From Leptolyngbyaceae cyanobacterium (lineage in GTDB: Bacteria; Cyanobacteriota; Cyanobacteriia; Phormidesmidales; Phormidesmidaceae): 64,000 nucleotides of DNA. The stretch spans positions 2,400,001 to 2,464,000 of the forward strand of contig CBDHHL010000056.1 of assembly GCA_965263355.1 (NCBI GenBank), written 5' to 3'. Numbering within the stretch: the stretch's first letter is position 1; each line of letters starts with the position of its first letter. Made by a program: the position numbers and the translations under genes. Shown one piece after another: positions 1 to 11,253 of this stretch. The notes beneath the pieces are model-generated. The model saw only the letters and a program-made list of their open reading frames with translations, was not told the DNA's origin and did not search any database.

Positions 1-698
1 GGAATGGGTTGGCGATGCTCTAACCTGCCTGATAGGGTCCCGAGCCCACCCACTAAGGCACCTAAACATGAAGCCAGCAGTATACTTAGCAGCAACCCTT
101 GCCAGCCTAACCAGGCTCCTAGCATAGCAGCTAACTTACCATCGCCGCCGCCCATAGCGGTCCTGCCCATCATGATGTCACCTAATATCCTAATACCATC
201 AAATAGCCAGAGGCCCAAAATACTGGCAGCAACACTAGCGATCAAGGCTGATGAAATCGTTTGGTCAGCTAGGAAAACGCCTTGGGCTAGCCAACCTAAA
301 CACACACCTGACATCGTTAAAGCATTCGGCAGGGTAAACGTGTCGATATCAATTAGGGTAAGGGTCACCAACCAACTAATTAAGCCCCAATAAATAGGCG
401 TTTCAAGCGTCCAGCCAAATCGTAGAAAGATAGCTACATACAACAGCCCGCTCAGCAATTCTACAAATGGATAACGTGACGAGATAGTACGCCGACAATA
501 ACGACAGCGACCACGCAACCATAACCAACCCAAAATGGGCACATTGTCATAGGTCTTTAAGCGCGTGTGACACTGAGGACAGTGGGATGGGGGGAACAGT
601 AGTGAACGTCCAGCTGGCAAGCGATAAACAACAACGTTAAGAAAACTACCAACAGCAGCGCCTAAAACAAAGACAAACAGATACGGTACTAGTGGCAT
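1..698 (-). CDS. pilD: Prepilin peptidase / N-methyltransferase (type IV leader peptidase), 3' end runs off the window
   Basis: Not in the ORF track. Manual translation from ATG at 698 gives MPLVPYLFVFVLGAAVGSFLNVVVYRLPAGRSLLFPPSHCPQCHTRLKTYDNVPILGWLWLRGRCRYC...RYPFVE, with two CxxC pairs and later MGGGDGKLAAMLGAWLGW (catalytic GxGD). Confidence 0.95.
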   Translation of the reverse strand, partial: MPLVPYLFVFVLGAAVGSFLNVVVYRLPAGRSLLFPPSHCPQCHTRLKTYDNVPILGWLWLRGRCRYCRRTISSRYPFVELLSGLLYVAIFLRFGWTLETPIYWGLISWLVTLTLIDIDTFTLPNALTMSGVCLGWLAQGVFLADQTISSALIASVAASILGLWLFDGIRILGDIMMGRTAMGGGDGKLAAMLGAWLGWQGLLLSILLASCLGALVGGLGTLSGRLEHRQPI

Positions 699-1016
699 CT
701 AATGCAGGCCTGGCTCTAGCTGAGTTAACGGAATAAAACTCTCATGGGGTAACAGTATAGGCTTGGGGCCAAAAATGAGTTTGCCGCGTCGGGTAGTACG
801 ACCAATGGCTACCCCAATCGGTCGGTCAACAATGTCAGGATGGACCTCGTAATAAGTACGATAAATGTGACGAGCCGCTCGTAGCAATGCCGGATCTAAC
901 ATAGATGACGGGGAGCGCAAATTAAGTGGACTACGCTGTAGCCCAGATGCTGCTACGCTGGGATGCACAGCCGCCTCACCGTAATTACCATACTCTGGCC
1001 GTTGTAAAGATGACAC
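699..1016 (-). CDS. Hypothetical protein, translationally adjacent to pilD
   Basis: 105-aa ORF (GTG start). Its TAG stop directly abuts the pilD ATG. Confidence 0.75.
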   Translation of the reverse strand: MSSLQRPEYGNYGEAAVHPSVAASGLQRSPLNLRSPSSMLDPALLRAARHIYRTYYEVHPDIVDRPIGVAIGRTTRRGKLIFGPKPILLPHESFIPLTQLEPGLH

Positions 1017-1230
1017 GACTGAATACTCCCTCTAGCTAGATAGTACTTTTGTAATGAGACTGATCTGATTTGTTGGCAAACGTAGCACGTCATTTGCTGA
1101 AAATACCCTATGTCTGCAAATAGAAACAGATCTGCCCCTATTCAGTACACCAATACTAGCTAGCATCGATGGATTGTGCCAGACCTTTCTCATCAGCATT
1201 ACTTCAAGGATGCTTAAGCTACATCTCAGA

Positions 1231-2319
1231 TCAGACTTCTTCATCCAGAGCTTGCAAAAGAGCCTCACCCATTGCCTTACAGCCAACAGCAGTCATCCCT
1301 TTGGCCATAATATCGCCGGTGCGATAGCCCTGATTGAGTACTGTATCTACAGCCTTTTCAATCATGGCAGCAGCTTGGGGGTGGTTCAAACCATAGCGCA
1401 GCATCATGGCAGCACTGAACACTTGCGCAAGGGGATTGGCTTTGTCTTGCCCCGCAATATCTGGAGCTGACCCATGCACAGGTTCAAATACACCGGGTCC
1501 CGAGACACCCAAGCTAGCGGAAGGGAGCATGCCTATGCTGCCAGTGAGCATAGCTGCCGCATCGGAAAGAATGTCACCAAATAAATTGCCCGTGACAATG
1601 GTGTCAAACTGCTTAGGCCAACGCAGTAGCTGCATGGCGGCATTGTCCACATATAAATGGGTTAATTCCACATCGGTGTAGTCCTGACCGAGGGCCGTCA
1701 TGCGATCGCGCCACAGCTGAGAAACTTCCAGGACATTAGCCTTATCCACGGAACACAGACGCCCCTGGCGCTTTTGGGCAGCCTCAAAAGCCACCCGACC
1801 AATGCGATCAACCTCAGCTCCGGTGTAGGCCATGGTATTCACCCCTCGCTGATCGCCATCGGCATCAAATACGCCACGGGGTTGTCCAAAGTAAATGCCG
1901 CCAGTTAACTCGCGTACCACCATAATATCCACCCCTTCAACCACCTCTCGCTTTAAAGAAGAGGAGTCAATTAACTGAGGCAAAATTGTGGCAGGTCGCA
2001 AATTAGCAAATAACCGCAGCCCCGCCCGCAGTCCTAGCAGACCTGTCTCTGGTCTCTGGTCACGGGGTAGTGAGTCCCACTTATAGCCACCGATAGCCGC
2101 CAACAGGACTGCATCACTTTGGCGACAGGTCGCCAAGGTTGCCTCCGGCAACGGGTTACCAGTCGCATCAATAGCACAACCGCCAATGGGTACCTCAGTA
2201 AAGTCAAACTGAATATCTACCTTTACACCAACCGATTTGAGAACATCAACAGCAACCGCTGTGATTTCAGGGCCAATACCATCGCCGGAAAGAAGAGTAA
2301 TACGAAACTGTTGGGTCAT
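1231..2319 (-). CDS. leuB: 3-isopropylmalate dehydrogenase
   Basis: Motifs [50 protein letters not shown]. Confidence 0.98.
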
Positions 2320-4271: not shown

Positions 4272-4904
4272 TTAACGGCTCATTTCCATACGTACACGGC
4301 GAACGGTTTGAGGCAGAACCCCAACCATCAAAGCAAATGCTTCGTTCGGGACGTTATCAATGGTGCTTTTATCAAAGTAAGTCTTAAACTGATCCAAAAT
4401 CATTTGGGCCCGATCGGTGGAACGAGGTTGATCAGTAAAATTCTGAGTTAAGCGAATCCACTGTAGACGGATTTTTAGAGCTTTTTGATGGTCCTCATGA
4501 TCATCAGGTTCAATTAAAGATAAATTTCCAAGGGGAATGATTTTATGACATCCCTGATCAAAATCACCGCCCACGGCTGCGCCAGGACCAGCAAATTCAG
4601 CATAAAACTCTCGAAAAAGAATCAGGCCGTTGCGACGACGACTATTGACGACTAATAAATCGCCACGATTAATTTTTTTGAGCAAACTGTCAACGGCTAA
4701 CGTTTCATTCACAGGCAAATTAGAACTAGAACCAAGAGGCTGCTTAGCTCGCTCAGCCCACCACTTTACCGTACTATCTTCTAGGTGCATAGCATTAACG
4801 GGAGGTGGTTGTGCTTGCACATTAAATATGTGGGCGCGCTTTCGGCCAAATGGCTTAACCGACGATGAGTAGAGTGAAGGTGGCTTGGATTGAGCATCCA
4901 TCAT
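4272..4904 (-). CDS. Hypothetical protein with a Crp/Fnr-like C-terminal helix-turn-helix
   Basis: C-terminal DRAQMIL...VPNEAFALMVGVLPQTVRRVR resembles the Crp HTH (LAxxVGxxxETVxR). FAGPGAAVG resembles a degenerate cNMP beta-roll. Confidence 0.6.
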   Translation of the reverse strand: MMDAQSKPPSLYSSSVKPFGRKRAHIFNVQAQPPPVNAMHLEDSTVKWWAERAKQPLGSSSNLPVNETLAVDSLLKKINRGDLLVVNSRRRNGLILFREFYAEFAGPGAAVGGDFDQGCHKIIPLGNLSLIEPDDHEDHQKALKIRLQWIRLTQNFTDQPRSTDRAQMILDQFKTYFDKSTIDNVPNEAFALMVGVLPQTVRRVRMEMSR

Positions 4905-5198
4905 TTTAGAGCGTCTACCTAGGGCTAAGGTAATCCAGACTAATTACTCTTATTTGATACGAGCACGATGACTTTCGTGTACTAAATCAATCGAGTTTTA
5001 TCCAGTCTTTGATAGTTACCAGTCCCTCCTCATACTCACTACATAAAAAATAATATTTATCAGGAGGATATGGATATTTTCACGGTATAAGGGGTAATAA
5101 ACTCTGTATCCAAAGTGCACTAGACTTTCTATAAATACGTAAATAACAGTTTTCTAGGTATAACTCTAAGCACTTTTTATTTTGAGTACATTAAACAC

Positions 5199-5908: not shown

Positions 5909-8900
5909 ATGTCTAGTCCAACACGTAATCGACAAGCCCACGCGGTCAAGCCCAAAATTCTAGTCGTTGACGATGAACCTGACAATTTAGACCTGTTCTA
6001 TCGAACGTTCTATAGAGAATTTAAGGTTCTGCGGGCAGACAGTGGTCAAAACGCATTGACAAGTTTGGCCGAGAACCCAGATACCGCTGCCATTATTTCA
6101 GACCAGCGCATGCCCCATATGAGCGGCACAGAGTTGCTTTTACAAGTTGCGCAAAGCTACCCCAATACAATGCGGATAATGTTGACAGGCTACACTGATG
6201 TAGATGACCTAGTCGACGCTATCAATACAGGCAAGGTATTTAAGTACATTACTAAGCCCTGGGAGGAAGAGGATCTGCGAGGGGTAGTTCAACAGGCTAT
6301 CGAAACTCACTTAGTCCTCAAATCAAGAACTCGAGAACTTGATCGTATTCTTGAGCAAGAAACTCTCCTCAACGAAATCACCCACACTATTCACAGCACC
6401 GAAACCTCCGAAAAGATGCTGCAGGTAATCACCCGCACAGTGGGAGCAGCATTTGAAGCGGATTATTGTGTCCTACGGCCTTTGTATGATTCGCCAGGGC
6501 AGGGACAGAACTTCTGGACCTACCAAGCGGCTTCAGCCGCGAACATTGATGGAGACACTCTGGCAGACACCGCTATTGATAGCGATAGCCTACAGGTGAT
6601 GACGGCACCCAATCTCCCTGACCATAAGGCTTATCGAATCTTAAGCCCCCAATCTAGTATTCTTATACCGCTCACCAACAAACGTGAGCCTTTGGCCATT
6701 TTGGCACTGCATCACTGCCAGCAGGCCAAACGTTGGCAAACAGAGGAGCTAAAAACCCTGGGGACTTTGGTAGATCAAGCGGCCCTGGCATTGGCGCAGG
6801 CATGGACCTACGAACGAGTCCAGGCTCTGGCACAGCGAGAAGTCTTAATTAACACAATCACTCAGGCAATTCACAGTAGCTTAGAGCCAAAACAAATCTT
6901 TTCAGCCATCACCCAAAAACTGGGACAAGCTCTGCAAACTGACGGCTGTGCAATTTCGTTATGGACCCAGGACGATGACTATGTCGACTGTGTCGGCTTG
7001 TATGATGCCAAACAGGAAAAGATTCTCTCCTTACCAAAATCTCAGGTCAAAATCAGCGAGAACCCCATTCTACAGGAACTGCTAGTCAGCCGATCGCCCG
7101 TCGTCTTTGATGACTTATCGACATCGACCATTCACACCCCTAGCCATTTATCTCTTCAGGCACAGACAACGGCCCTACTGGTAGTGCCCTTAATTACTGA
7201 CGGTCAAATCATCGGTAGCATCAGTTTACGCCAGACCCAACCTCGTCACTGGCATATGGAAGAAATCAACTTGGCCCAGGCAGTTGCCAATCAAGCGGCG
7301 ATCGCAGTGCAGCAAGCTCGGTTATACCAAACCACCCGTCAACAGGCCGAACAATTAATGGCACTAGACAAGCAAAAGACTACATTTTTTCAGAACATTT
7401 CCCATGAATTTCGCACCCCTCTAACCCTGACCATCGGTCCCCTAGAGTCGGCTGTGGAAAATGGTACTGGACTGCCCCTAGATCAGTCGGTCATTGCCCT
7501 GCGCAATTCGCGTCGATTGCTGCGACTTGTCAACCAGCTACTGGACCTCCAGCGGCTTGATGCCGGGCGCATGCAGGCGACTTTTTATCCCTGCGACTTT
7601 GATCAAGTTGTTAAGGGCGTTGCTGAGGCATTTCAAGCCTATTGCGATCGCAAACGCATTACTCTAACCACTCAAATTCAGCCCTGCCCTTCGGTCTACC
7701 TTGACCTCGAAAAATTTGACAAGGTGCTCTATAACATTCTGTCCAATGCCGTTAAATTCACCCCAGCAGGAGGGGCCATTCAAATCACCTTAAATACCTT
7801 TGAAACCCGTTGCTATCTGGAGATCGAAGACACAGGGATTGGTATCCGAAAAGAACAACTACCCTACATTTTTGAACGCTTTCAACAGGCCGATGGCTCT
7901 GCTAATCGTACCCATGAGGGCACAGGCTTAGGTCTGGCACTTGTGAAAGAGTTGGTCGAACTTCATGGCGGGGAAATTCGAGTATCCTCCTCTTATGGGG
8001 CTGGCACCTTATTTACCGTTGAACTGCCGACAGGAGCTGACCATCTACCTGCGGATCGTGTCAATCAAACTGCCCGTACCCTGGAACAGAGGCGAGCAGC
8101 GGTAGAACTCGCCGATCTCCACAATCAAGTAGTGGCTGACACCACATTAGAGCCAACCCCAACTACATTAGAACCAACCCCAACTGCAGATACTGAAGAC
8201 ACTGCAGCGATTGAGCCACTCTCTTCCCCCACAATACCAAACATAGAAATAGCCGCATTATCAAATGCAACTGTAGCTCCAGAGAGTACAACCATCCTCG
8301 TCGTTGATGACAACCCAGATTTACGAAATTATGTAGCAACAATCTTGAAACAACAGAAATATCGCATCAAGACAGCAGATAACGGCGCAACTGGCCTTGC
8401 TGTAGCCAATCACATTCAGCCTCAATTGATTATTACGGATCTGATGATGCCCCAGGTTTCCGGGATAGAACTCATTCAGAAGGTCCGCCTTAATCCCAAA
8501 CTGCAAGGTACGCCCATCATTTTACTCACAGCCAAGGTCGATGATGACACTCGCTTAGAAGGCGTCGAACAGGGAGCAGATGCTTACATATCGAAGCCAT
8601 TTAAGGATCGCGAACTTTTGGCTGAAGTACGTAATTTATTGGCACTTAAGGCCAACGAACACCGGATAGCAGAACTCAACCAGTACCTCACTGAATCTGT
8701 CCTCAAGCGCTTTTTACCAGACTCCTTGGTGCAAAAGGCTGCCCATGGAACCCTACAGCTCAATCTCAAGCCCGAACCTCGCTTAGTGACCGTTTTATTT
8801 AGCGATATTGTGGGATTTACCCAACTGTCTAATACGTTGCGATCTCGCCGGGTAGCCGAACTCCTCAACGAATATTTTGAAGCCATGACCCATGCCATTT

Positions 8901-9358
8901 TTACCAGTGGCGGCACCGTTGATAAATTTATGGGGGACGCTGTTCTAGCCTTATTTGGTGCGCCAGAACCCCTGAGTCCCAATGAACAAGTCAGGCGTGC
9001 GATCGCAGCTGCGCGCCATATGTATAAAGCCCTAGAAGAGCTGAACCAACGTTGGAGTCAGCAGGGCGTTCCCCCTGTTAGATTCCGCTGTGGTATTCAT
9101 CAAGGCACTGCCGTAGTCGGCATGTTTGGCAGTGCTCAAAGAACAGACTATACCGCCATCGGCCCTAGCGTTAATATCGCTGCGCGCCTCCAAGAAGCCG
9201 CTGACGGCGAAAGCATTTTAGTCTCCGCCGCTGTCGCCGACTACCTCGACGAACAAGAAATCGTTAAATTCAGCCCTCTAAAGCTCAAGGGCATTGATGA
9301 AACAGTTCTAACATTCAACGTTAAAACAACCCTGCCAGAAGGTATAGGGATATCGTAG
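5909..9358 (+). CDS. cyaC: Hybrid sensor adenylate cyclase (REC-GAF-GAF-HisKA-HATPase-REC-class III cyclase), CyaC type
   Basis: ILVVDDEP...SDQRMP REC; two GAF domains; ISHEFRTPL H-box; NILSNAVKF, DTGIGI, GTGLGL; second REC; FSDIVGFT, DKFMGDAV, TAIGPSVNIAARLQ. This domain order is that of cyanobacterial CyaC. Confidence 0.93.
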   Translation: MSSPTRNRQAHAVKPKILVVDDEPDNLDLFYRTFYREFKVLRADSGQNALTSLAENPDTAAIISDQRMPHMSGTELLLQVAQSYPNTMRIMLTGYTDVDDLVDAINTGKVFKYITKPWEEEDLRGVVQQAIETHLVLKSRTRELDRILEQETLLNEITHTIHSTETSEKMLQVITRTVGAAFEADYCVLRPLYDSPGQGQNFWTYQAASAANIDGDTLADTAIDSDSLQVMTAPNLPDHKAYRILSPQSSILIPLTNKREPLAILALHHCQQAKRWQTEELKTLGTLVDQAALALAQAWTYERVQALAQREVLINTITQAIHSSLEPKQIFSAITQKLGQALQTDGCAISLWTQDDDYVDCVGLYDAKQEKILSLPKSQVKISENPILQELLVSRSPVVFDDLSTSTIHTPSHLSLQAQTTALLVVPLITDGQIIGSISLRQTQPRHWHMEEINLAQAVANQAAIAVQQARLYQTTRQQAEQLMALDKQKTTFFQNISHEFRTPLTLTIGPLESAVENGTGLPLDQSVIALRNSRRLLRLVNQLLDLQRLDAGRMQATFYPCDFDQVVKGVAEAFQAYCDRKRITLTTQIQPCPSVYLDLEKFDKVLYNILSNAVKFTPAGGAIQITLNTFETRCYLEIEDTGIGIRKEQLPYIFERFQQADGSANRTHEGTGLGLALVKELVELHGGEIRVSSSYGAGTLFTVELPTGADHLPADRVNQTARTLEQRRAAVELADLHNQVVADTTLEPTPTTLEPTPTADTEDTAAIEPLSSPTIPNIEIAALSNATVAPESTTILVVDDNPDLRNYVATILKQQKYRIKTADNGATGLAVANHIQPQLIITDLMMPQVSGIELIQKVRLNPKLQGTPIILLTAKVDDDTRLEGVEQGADAYISKPFKDRELLAEVRNLLALKANEHRIAELNQYLTESVLKRFLPDSLVQKAAHGTLQLNLKPEPRLVTVLFSDIVGFTQLSNTLRSRRVAELLNEYFEAMTHAIFTSGGTVDKFMGDAVLALFGAPEPLSPNEQVRRAIAAARHMYKALEELNQRWSQQGVPPVRFRCGIHQGTAVVGMFGSAQRTDYTAIGPSVNIAARLQEAADGESILVSAAVADYLDEQEIVKFSPLKLKGIDETVLTFNVKTTLPEGIGIS
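8141..8182 (+). repeat. 2 x 21-nt tandem repeat (TTLEPTP) in the CyaC interdomain linker
   Basis: accacattagagccaacccca / actacattagaaccaacccca. Confidence 0.85.
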
Positions 9359-9382: not shown

Positions 9383-9985
9383 TTAACCTGTAGGTAACCC
9401 ATAGCTATGCATGATGTGGCGCATGCGTTTTTTGGCCCGTGATACCCGTTTGCGCAATGTGGCTTGGCTGGGAATATCGGTTTCCCCCAGCTGCTCTAGA
9501 CGACTAGTAATTTGTGCCCACGACAATTGCTCAATCGTACGCCATACCAATAGTTGAGCCGTATGGTCATCCTCACGAGATAAGGCTCTGAGAGCCTTGT
9601 AGAGTAAATCAATCTCATGGCGCAAATCAATCGACTCCAGTACATAGTCAGGCTCAGCCCCGACACGATACTCGACATCATCATAACTCTGGGATGCCTG
9701 CCGCTGGGCCTGACGGCTTTTCTCACGCACGATATTGAACGCAGTGCGCTTGAGCCAGGCATGGGGATTGTAAATAACTTCACCATTACGCTGACGTGTT
9801 TTTCCCCGTAGATAGGCCTCAAACAAAATTTCATAGGGTTCAAACTGATGCATCAGTCGAAACTGATAGAGATGGCGGCGAACCGTAGCCAATGTGGAAT
9901 AAGCATAGGAATTACCACGACCTAAAATTTCAGAAAGGGCAAGATCCAAAACATCCAATAACGGCAATTCAGGTTGGTCAGCCAT
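9383..9985 (-). CDS. Atypical ECF-like sigma-70 family factor
   Basis: Sigma2-like EILFEAYLRG...HAWLKRTAFNIVREKSR and sigma4-like LSWAQI...SQATLRKRVSRAKKRMR. 200 aa, no sigma3 region. Confidence 0.8.
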   Translation of the reverse strand: MADQPELPLLDVLDLALSEILGRGNSYAYSTLATVRRHLYQFRLMHQFEPYEILFEAYLRGKTRQRNGEVIYNPHAWLKRTAFNIVREKSRQAQRQASQSYDDVEYRVGAEPDYVLESIDLRHEIDLLYKALRALSREDDHTAQLLVWRTIEQLSWAQITSRLEQLGETDIPSQATLRKRVSRAKKRMRHIMHSYGLPTG

Positions 9986-10011
9986 ACCAATGAGCAGGGG
10001 ATTCTCTTACA

Positions 10012-10038
10012 TAGTGATGTTCAGTGTGGCCCCGTGAC
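10012..10038 (-). promoter_or_regulatory. Candidate ECF promoter GTCAC-N17-CACTA (copy 1, facing the sigma gene)
   Basis: Minus strand GTCAC ggggccacactgaacat CACTA, ending 26 nt before the ATG at 9985. Confidence 0.7.
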
Positions 10039-10144
10039 ATTACGCATTTATCTATATTTATTCAAGAATACGTAGGTTTGCCCACAGAGGACCGTAGTTT
10101 ATCGTAACGACTTCAGCCAATTAGGAAACCATTTGAAATTTGCC

Positions 10145-10171
10145 GTCACAGTAGTATGGTCCCAGCCACTA
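10145..10171 (+). promoter_or_regulatory. Candidate ECF promoter GTCAC-N17-CACTA (copy 2, facing the PG-binding gene)
   Basis: GTCAC agtagtatggtcccagc CACTA, 45 nt before the ATG at 10217. Confidence 0.7.
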
Positions 10172-10216
10172 ACCACTTAGCGTACTCATTCAGCACCGTT
10201 TAATGGAGACAAACCC

Positions 10217-10702
10217 ATGTTTAGCAATTCCAGCAATGTCAGCATTAGCAATCATGCCCAGCAACATCATGATTTGATCCATGCATATTGCCAGTTATCC
10301 ATCAAGCCTGACCTGAACGATAGTGATACTGATCGTTTGGACGGTATTTTGGCAATGGCTGAAACCGATTCGCTCATAAGTTTCTTAATCGATGAAGCAG
10401 ATCATATGCTGTCACACTTATATAGTTTGATTGATGAGAACGATATTGCTGACCAGCAGAAAAAATTACAAGCCTGCCTTAACGAATCATGGCTAAACCA
10501 AGCTTTTCAGGACCTAGCCCATCGTCTGCAAACGTCACAATGTAAAAGCCTGCAACAATACCTTAAAGAAGAGGGCTTTTACACCGGAGCGATTGATGGG
10601 GTAATGGGGTCCTTGACCAAAGCTGCCATGAAGCAATGTTGCGAACAGCAAGGACAACTGCCACAGCCATTACCGATTCATACCCCAGAGACTGTGAATT
10701 AA
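10217..10702 (+). CDS. Protein with an uncharacterised N-terminal helical domain and a C-terminal peptidoglycan-binding (PG_binding_1-like) domain
   Basis: LQQYLKEEGFYTGAIDGVMGSLTKAAMKQ matches the LQxxLxxxGyyxGxiDGxxGxxTxxA pattern. GGAG RBS upstream. Confidence 0.8.
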   Translation: MFSNSSNVSISNHAQQHHDLIHAYCQLSIKPDLNDSDTDRLDGILAMAETDSLISFLIDEADHMLSHLYSLIDENDIADQQKKLQACLNESWLNQAFQDLAHRLQTSQCKSLQQYLKEEGFYTGAIDGVMGSLTKAAMKQCCEQQGQLPQPLPIHTPETVN

Positions 10703-10797
10703 TAAAATGCTGTATTCCTTTTAACGCAAAGCTTTATACAACTTGGACTATAGCCAATTTGCTGATCCAATCGCTGTACTGACCACTATACCTACCG

Positions 10798-10824
10798 GTC
10801 ACATCTGCACGGAGGTCATCACTA
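10798..10824 (+). promoter_or_regulatory. Candidate ECF promoter GTCAC-N17-CACTA (copy 3, facing the pentapeptide gene)
   Basis: GTCAC atctgcacggaggtcat CACTA, about 30 nt before the ORF start. Confidence 0.7.
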
Positions 10825-10851
10825 GTAGATAAGTAAGCCTACTAGACTCCT

Positions 10852-11253
10852 TTGATGAACAGCATTATGCAATCGAACATTCAAACTTTAATCAAGCGTT
10901 ACCAACAGGGTGAGCGTATATTCCATGGATTAGACTTGCGGGGGTGTGACCTGAGCCATTTACAGCTACCAGAAATTGACCTCAGCTATAGCATTTTAAG
11001 TGAGGCTTCCTTAGTAAGCACAGATTTAGCATGGGCAGTTTTGCGGGATGTTAATTTGACCAACGCTAACTTGACCTCTGCCCATCTGCATCGAGCCAAC
11101 CTGAGACGCGCTAACCTCACTACGGCCACCCTCAACAAAGCCGACTTGCGCGCTGCCGACCTACGCGGCGCAACTATTGTCAATACAGTTTTTATTGACA
11201 GTAATCTTTGGGGGGCAGTGGCTCCAGACGGTAGCCCACTCCATCGGAATTAG
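10852..11253 (+). CDS. Pentapeptide repeat protein
   Basis: LIKRYQQGERIF leader followed by A(N/D)Lxx repeats. The start may be the ATG at 10855 or 10867. Confidence 0.9.
   Translation: MMNSIMQSNIQTLIKRYQQGERIFHGLDLRGCDLSHLQLPEIDLSYSILSEASLVSTDLAWAVLRDVNLTNANLTSAHLHRANLRRANLTTATLNKADLRAADLRGATIVNTVFIDSNLWGAVAPDGSPLHRN

Follow-up and report, generated by a model that had tools for sequence, protein, structure and literature searches.

The window analysed here is a 64,000-nucleotide (nt) stretch of contig CBDHHL010000056.1 from a Leptolyngbyaceae cyanobacterium, and between positions 9383 and 11253 it holds a module of three genes and three copies of one bipartite motif, (T)GTCAC-N17-CACTA. 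An extracytoplasmic function (ECF)-type sigma factor of 200 amino acids is encoded on the minus strand (9383–9985, start ATG at 9985), and the first motif copy (site 1, 10012–10038, minus strand), the likely autoregulatory promoter of this gene, ends 26 nt before the ATG. On the plus strand, site 2 (10145–10171) ends 45 nt before the ATG at 10217 of a gene for a 161-amino-acid protein (10217–10702, hereafter designated the partner), which combines a helical N-terminal domain with a partial peptidoglycan (PG)-binding domain and is a likely anti-sigma factor; site 2 is the likely promoter of its gene. Site 3 (10798–10824, plus strand) is the likely promoter of a gene for a small Alr5209-like pentapeptide-repeat protein (10852–11253, plus strand; Pfam Pentapeptide, E 8e-22; NCBIfam Alr5209 family, 102.5 bits, under the cut-off of 125), itself a likely target gene. 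Site 3 ends 27 nt ahead of the earliest possible start (10852); measured to the ATG at 10867, at the equivalent of which the orthologues start and where the gene probably starts as well, the gap is 42 nt. As set out below, we consider it probable that the motif is the −35/−10 promoter of the adjacent ECF-type sigma, which the partner, through its N-terminal domain, would keep inactive.

An earlier note on this DNA, made from the letters alone, had reported three exact GTCAC-N17-CACTA copies, intergenic, oriented towards three different genes and differing in their spacers, and all of this was confirmed. Thus, a search for GTCAC-N16..18-CACTA found exactly three matches in the window, every one with a 17-nt spacer, against a mean of 0.25 and a maximum of 2 in shuffled windows (three reached in 0/100) and an expectation from base composition of 0.12 GTCAC/CACTA matches per window. 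The three sites lie between genes, each is directed at a gene, and their spacers are unlike one another, which bears out that they are not a simple duplication. With one mismatch allowed, four extra matches appeared in the window (total 7, against a mean of 3.06), and these were excluded from the site count.

The sigma protein had no Pfam match and thus falls outside the filter of Pfam Sigma70_r2 plus r4 that ECF surveys require (Todor 2020). Against NCBIfam it gave weak ECF matches only and no match to TIGR02957. A profile built from 123 relatives, in contrast to Pfam, matched SigW at E 2e-7 (the top PDB sequence match, over residues 46–191) and SigL at 6e-6. The structure model (predicted local distance difference test, pLDDT, 89) shows a sigma2 domain at about residues 10–100 and a sigma4 domain at about 115–195, with no sigma3 and with a short linker near residues 100–115 modelled at low confidence. 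ECF sigmas lead the Foldseek list obtained with this model, none of them below E 0.001, and a second aligner gave Z 7.6 with a root-mean-square deviation (rmsd) of 2.2 over 79 aligned residues for sigma2 and Z 10.2 with an rmsd of 2.4 over 80 for sigma4. As modelled, the protein is an ECF-type sigma2 plus sigma4 fold that Pfam misses.

The two peculiarities claimed earlier, EILFEAYL in place of DxxQE and an insertion in the sigma4 helix-turn-helix, proved real relative to SigW and AlgU and are family-wide. Region 2.2 reads EILFE where DxxQE is expected, and across the family it takes the form E/D-x-x-(N,V,I,H,F,S)-E/D, in which the acids are retained and the glutamine at position 55 is replaced; the insertion amounts to 6 residues. 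E/D52, E/D56, R60 and W77 are kept across the family. The recognition helix is TLRKRVSRA in the window protein and LR(K/Q)RxxRA in the family, and R178 within it aligns with Arg171 of RpoE. Among the 123 members, Pfam detected r2 (sigma2) in 6 and r4_2 in 48; since sigma2 is so rarely seen, a survey that needs both Pfam domains would drop most of the family. At E ≤ 0.001 the family comprises 514 representatives, found in 40/301 sampled genomes of the class and 82/150 of the order, and also on plasmids of Nostoc, Calothrix and Fischerella. At four loci (L086, L092, L067 and L384), a pair of family sigmas stands in tandem, and partner genes are found between the two or next to them.

Genome-level statements in this work concern relatives of the source organism, the closest named ones being Leptolyngbya sp. 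Heron Island J, PCC 7375, Adonisia turfae and Leptothoe kymatousa (sigma identity 86–93%). In the 19 orthologous loci that include upstream DNA (the truncated L019 was left out), the partner site and the pentapeptide site are exact in 19/19 each, and the sigma site is exact in 14/19 and within one mismatch in 18/19, being degenerate in L003. The inner spacers drift meanwhile, and are 48–69% alike between these loci. Before orthologues with 52–54% identity, the pentapeptide site persists in the form CACTA or CACAT. The best conserved of the three spacers is that of the sigma site (10012–10038; L001–L020), which contains in many orthologues an inverted repeat, GTTCA-N3-TGAAC, of which the window retains the TGAAC half only; this is possibly the site of a second regulator.

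Beyond the orthologues, a relaxed pattern, GTCAC-N16/18-CAC, chosen after viewing distant loci, was sought on the coding strand in the 350 nt that precede family sigma genes; the loci analysed are part of the family matches in the class and order genomes. It lay upstream of 34/49 clusters in the first set, against a shuffle mean of 0.72 and a maximum of 3. In an enlarged set of 147 distinct genes it was found before 51/86 clusters at 70% identity and 31/56 at 50%, whereas the coding-region control gave 1/86 and 1/56 and the reversed-pattern control 5/86 and 2/56. The expectation that the motif would recur upstream of orthologues is thus borne out, and the worry that it had been derived post hoc is answered, because independent loci keep it. 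It accompanies the sigma gene down to about 27% family identity and is present in most main clades of the sigma tree, with two small clades lacking it, and it also precedes 16/17 divergent partner genes. Two Nostoc plasmid modules have both motif copies, so the motif moves with the module onto these plasmids. In the same two modules (L127, 3967, plus strand; L128, 3968, plus strand), a third exact copy is aimed, antisense, at the 3′ end of the 108-amino-acid partner gene, possibly serving a small RNA or an unannotated small gene.

The form of the sites agrees with that of a promoter. Among the 51 sites, 35 begin 41–59 nt before the start codon, and the spacer is 17 nt in 32, 18 nt in 13 and 16 nt in 6. 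The consensus is TGTCACA-N16±1-CAC(T/A)(A/T), with T preceding GTCAC in 27/34 sites and A following it in 32/34; a T comes next, and 6–9 nt past the motif there is a purine run, at the position where the transcription start would be expected. The base C at −31 is chosen by an Arg that stands at position 171 in RpoE (Todor 2020 preprint); the equivalent position, that of R178, is R in 82/86 clusters, and the motif has C at −31, and it thereby fits the known ECF −35 code as judged from sequence. A scan for the sigma-70 consensus found one site, fewer than chance. Collectively, the linkage to the family, the fixed distance, the 17±1 spacer and the −35 code support the proposal of the earlier note that the motif is the promoter of this sigma, and it is likely that the sigma reads it.

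The earlier note had listed the partner gene as one of the three that a motif copy precedes, and had missed its likely role as the gene of an anti-sigma factor. The N-terminal domain (about residues 10–105) is helical, with the consensus Y..L....L...D..RL..IL..AE.D.LLSFLIDEADH, and helices are predicted at 18–28, 35–50, 52–68 and from 74 onward. The PG_binding_1 match at 108–140 (Pfam E 2.5e-6; 28 bits against a cut-off of 23) covers only positions 4–36 of the 57 in the profile; the partners of L081 and L067 have this domain at full length. No membrane helix is present in the window partner (hydropathy maximum 1.07), which is likely cytoplasmic by its sequence. The PG_binding_1 fold occurs also in OpcA, a cytoplasmic enzyme partner.

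A partner domain lies within 2.5 kb of the sigma in 70/86 cases, being divergent in 25, downstream in 32, upstream in 8 and convergent in 5, and the 16/86 with no partner nearby include some paralogue clades. When 69 partner proteins were sorted by simple rules, which undercount PG domains (L075 is an example), a PG-binding motif without a membrane helix was seen in 24, a hydrophobic helix in 16, neither in 29 and both in 0. The commonest recognisable tail is PG_binding_1 without a membrane helix, and among the other tails are DPBB_1, a cadherin combined with laminin G, and a further sigma. In L077, a family sigma is followed directly by one 492-amino-acid reading frame (1–1476, minus strand) that contains the partner domain twice, fused to a second ECF sigma. 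No longer partner fusions were found, in what was a weak test, and a partner search in 251 genomes of the phylum found 3, a figure that gives no range as at most 14 candidates were scored per genome.

In the predicted complex of the sigma with partner residues 10–105, the score was 0.76, against 0.00 for the best of 3 controls; this score is reached by 116/157 solved and 2/215 mismatched pairs, a calibration that is only rough for the alignments used. The runs share at least 81% of contacts, with a partner pLDDT of at least 82. The predicted interface on the sigma comprises residues 49–63 (the core-binding helix), residues 72–87 (the −10 helix) and parts of sigma4. As to known families, the partner has no Pfam or PDB sequence match to anti-sigma factors; Foldseek returned the PG domain only, and a search of the Atlas only a lead at 0.75. 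The best fold match of residues 15–74 is the cytoplasmic domain of PupR (Z 6.2, rmsd 2.6, 55 aligned), tied with unrelated folds. Class I anti-sigmas have a three-helix bundle plus a fourth helix and form a dual interface with sigma2 and sigma4 (PMC7406223). Like this type of domain (RseA, RsiW, PupR), the partner has a small helical N-terminal domain for which contacts with sigma2 (regions 2.1–2.2) and sigma4 are predicted here, and both groups include soluble and membrane-anchored versions; unlike class I anti-sigmas, the partner has neither a Pfam anti-sigma match nor a zinc motif. Because its N-terminal domain lies beside 70/86 sigmas and is predicted to clamp the sigma, the PG-binding gene likely encodes the anti-sigma of the adjoining sigma, with inhibition as the predicted outcome.

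How far the motif extends beyond the module was examined in the relatives. No genome-wide enrichment was found in the scan that the earlier note had suggested: exact 17-nt matches, at 4–15 per genome and close to the composition expectation (15 per 8 Mb), fell under the reversed-pattern control in 17/19 genomes. The regulon proposed in that note would comprise the local sites and three remote sites conserved in the close (Leptothoe/Adonisia) clade, and it is, by these sequence counts, small and not genome-wide. The remote sites precede an NfeD–flotillin operon, an AAA+ ATPase gene and a CHAT-FHA gene. For the NfeD-like gene, which is followed by a Band 7 flotillin gene, 50 of 101 genomes with the gene were examined; the site stands at −51/−52 in 16/17 close-clade loci with full upstream DNA, and is found in 2/5 of the next clade and 0/27 more distant genomes. 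The site of the AAA+ ATPase paralogue lies 66–69 nt from the ATG in 5/5 genomes, whereas a 50%-identical paralogue has it in 0/19 loci. The CHAT-FHA site falls within the 3′-terminal part of a PP2C gene, some 160 nt ahead of the CHAT-FHA gene, and in the 30 of 143 loci examined it is exact in 17/17 close and 0/13 distant ones. The PP2C linker encoded at the site is 30–58% identical outside two near-identical loci, and the spacers are 44% alike; since the site stays exact despite so variable a coding linker, selection appears to act on the DNA itself, and we regard this as the strongest sign of such selection in the comparison.

Several other candidates were set aside. The motif before ileS was exact in 2/7 only and that before cysE in 1/6 only, and most other single matches lay in coding regions or did not recur (the remaining matches were viewed in part, 20 in each of two batches). 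Genomes G340 and G423, which have remote sites and no sigma, were uninformative, as both assemblies lack the whole region of 7 kb, murG included. In L140 an exact site precedes a short gene with a WRVKYQ(A/G) motif, which is convergent to the sigma gene in L074–L076 and is possibly another NfeD-like target. In L212 (3327–3938, plus strand), a 203-amino-acid protein without a Pfam match is encoded after the CHAT-FHA gene and may share its transcript.

The mechanism that we propose is as follows. The partner domain would wedge between sigma2 and sigma4, masking in the model the core-binding (49–63) and −10 (72–87) helices, until a signal releases the sigma and RNA polymerase fires the three local promoters. 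The promoter of the sigma gene would then provide positive feedback and that of the anti-sigma gene negative feedback, and the pentapeptide protein would also be made. In the Leptothoe/Adonisia clade, the three remote promoters (NfeD–flotillin operon, AAA+ ATPase paralogue, CHAT-FHA gene) would be fired as well, and these targets, which concern the organisation of membranes and the turnover of proteins, point to a response to membrane and protein damage. The releasing signal is the weakest step; we favour envelope damage, which may be sensed through the variable C-terminal part of the partner. A bolder extension, which we offer as doubtful speculation, is a cyanobacteria-wide, unclassified ECF group whose soluble anti-sigma senses peptidoglycan or peptidoglycan fragments in the cytoplasm (from wall breach, lysis or faulty septation) and which activates a repair-or-die set consisting of flotillin microdomains, an AAA+ ATPase and, through the promoter in the coding linker, a caspase-family CHAT protein.

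Other readings of the same sites have to be set against this promoter reading. Near-identical halves in some members (GTCACA...GTCACA; L073–L076 and L080) would suit an operator through which a non-sigma factor controls the module by binding TCAC direct repeats spaced about 20 bp, with the sigma promoter elsewhere or absent; TCACA is half of a CRP box. The spacing, however, varies over 16–18 nt and tracks the sigma clade, orientation and start-codon distance are fixed, no TGTGA half lies upstream, the site persists in promoter orientation within the coding linker, and no other regulator gene was seen travelling with the module in the loci viewed, so that we hold such an operator to be very unlikely. 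Still less probable, to our judgement, is a promoter read by another sigma, such as an ECF41 that shares the −35 box. An ECF41 protein is indeed found above the family cut-off in 3/5 genomes tested, and ECF41 loci carry TGTCACA, but their sites end in CGTC or TGTC and not in CACTA (PMC3426412 and the loci themselves); moreover, genome G251 has three module copies and no ECF41 match (best E 8e-7; completeness uncertain), and the NfeD genes are without the site in 27/27 more distant genomes.

The protein itself might bind the motif through its sigma-like domains without recruiting RNA polymerase, as a repressor or decoy. The family-wide loss of the region 2.2 glutamine and the detection of the Pfam sigma2 in just 6/123 members speak for this, as does a 2024 survey that queried whether r4-only cyanobacterial proteins work as sigma factors (PMC11119718). 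The modelled sigma2 fold is nevertheless complete, E/D52, E/D56, R60 and W77 are retained, a dedicated partner for which masking of the core-binding helix is predicted is best understood if that helix works, and the atypical cyanobacterial HetZ turned out to be a true sigma (PMC13342950); we give the repressor or decoy hardly any credence. Somewhat less remote, and still unlikely, is the idea, bearing on the partner step only, that the partner is a co-regulated target or co-activator and not an inhibitor. The partner gene has a motif copy of its own, 16/86 sigmas have no partner nearby, and the PupR match, at Z 6.2, is tied with unrelated folds. The predicted interface, in contrast, covers both DNA-binding domains and the core-binding helix as in class I anti-sigmas (PMC7406223), and the tails include membrane helices with outside domains.

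Some observations weigh against the reading of the motif as the promoter of a sigma restrained by its partner. Within 350 nt, 35/86 family members have no motif, and among those with the partner gene directly upstream, 2/6 have one further up. Replacement of the region 2.2 glutamine could mean weak core binding, and the modelled complex may owe its score to resemblance with sigma/anti-sigma pairs of solved structure. Co-variation between the fourth −10 base and loop residues 61 and 74 (Fisher p about 1e-5), a sign of co-evolution of sigma and motif, was no longer significant after tree correction (5 independent pairs, p 1). By the Todor code, the basic residue 60 predicts T at −11, where the simplest register gives C. 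The flanks of the NfeD site are conserved as well, which weakens that case, and as the remote sites lie in relatives, the target list of the source organism is only a presumptive one. Some motif-less members carry another element instead: in L116, L121 and L057, which form a paralogue clade without motif or nearby partner, a palindrome, TGTGA-N6-TCACA, resembling a CRP site, lies about 120 nt upstream of the sigma gene.

With this work a sigma family that Pfam-based surveys miss or file as 'r4 only' gains a likely promoter, a likely inhibitor and a short list of candidate targets, and the three native promoters make the sigma function of such proteins directly testable. The partner domain has no family name, and, if the reading is true, its frequent PG-binding fusion without a membrane anchor would be an unusual way of sensing the state of the envelope. 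A stringent set of sigma, anti-sigma and promoter, for which a genome has few chance sites, might also be used in cyanobacterial engineering as an orthogonal switch.

Two neighbouring elements of the window remain to be described. A 1149-amino-acid hybrid protein, with receiver, two GAF, histidine kinase, receiver and adenylate/guanylate cyclase domains (5909–9358, plus strand), is encoded up to 24 nt from the sigma stop codon and adjoins the sigma gene in the close clade only. At 5015–5041 (plus strand) there is a one-mismatch match with a 17-nt spacer that 6 orthologous loci preserve in full, the spacer as well; it faces no same-strand gene and may belong to the gene at 4272–4904 (minus strand), whose 210-amino-acid product has no Pfam or NCBIfam match.

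The overall logic is that of an ordinary ECF system, whereas four things appear new in the literature searched: the sigma family, its −10 box, the domain of the partner and the set of targets. That search, of partial coverage, returned no description of any of the four, in line with the statement of the earlier note that it did not recognise this cyanobacterial regulon as described, and absence from print is unproven. Among functional analogues, sigmaW, which has a different promoter and a membrane zinc anti-sigma, shares with the family a likely NfeD–flotillin target, and SigW is its top PDB sequence match. The sigmaW regulon of Bacillus subtilis includes the NfeD–flotillin operon yuaFG (PMC3503724); the NfeD site described above, by contrast, is confined to a single clade.

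The family was compared with known ECF groups by their descriptions. The −35 box and the recognition arginine match ECF41 (SigJ-like; Wecke 2012, PMC3426412), whose promoter is TGTCACA-n16-CGTC, and both have a 16±1 spacer, a small local regulon and an R-Q/K-x-x-x-R-A recognition helix; ECF41 proteins and loci in the same genomes show the helix xCRQxxxRAR and TGTCACA-N16-CGTC/TGTC. In contrast, the −10 box is CAC(T/A)(A/T) in the family and CGTC in ECF41, the SnoaL-like C-terminal extension (some 100 residues long) and the WLPEP linker, present in the true ECF41 of the same genomes, are absent from the 200-amino-acid window sigma, and the family has, unlike ECF41, a separate predicted anti-sigma gene. 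ECF103, ECF250 and ECF288 (Casas-Pastor 2021, PMC7826278) likewise have TGTCAC(A) at −35, with −10 boxes of TCT, GTTATATA and TGTCTAAT, respectively; ECF103, all from Firmicutes, and ECF250 have membrane anti-sigmas at +1, and ECF288 has a Cys-rich tail and no anti-sigma (PMC7826278). Of the cyanobacteria-rich groups, ECF111, with a putative anti-sigma at +1, has the promoter TTGAACCT/GTCTAAA, unlike the family motif, and ECF237 has, in the same source, no anti-sigma and no conserved promoter (PMC7826278). By these descriptions, the −10 box seems to fit no described ECF group that we found. A further known system is sigmaHetZ–PatU3 of Anabaena (PMC13342950), also an atypical cyanobacterial ECF with a soluble inhibitor and first known through its motif. 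SigmaHetZ, however, has large insertion domains, the promoter TCCGGA-N16/17-TGNA and 546 predicted promoters (PMC13342950), whereas the window sigma is a compact protein of 200 amino acids with about six sites.

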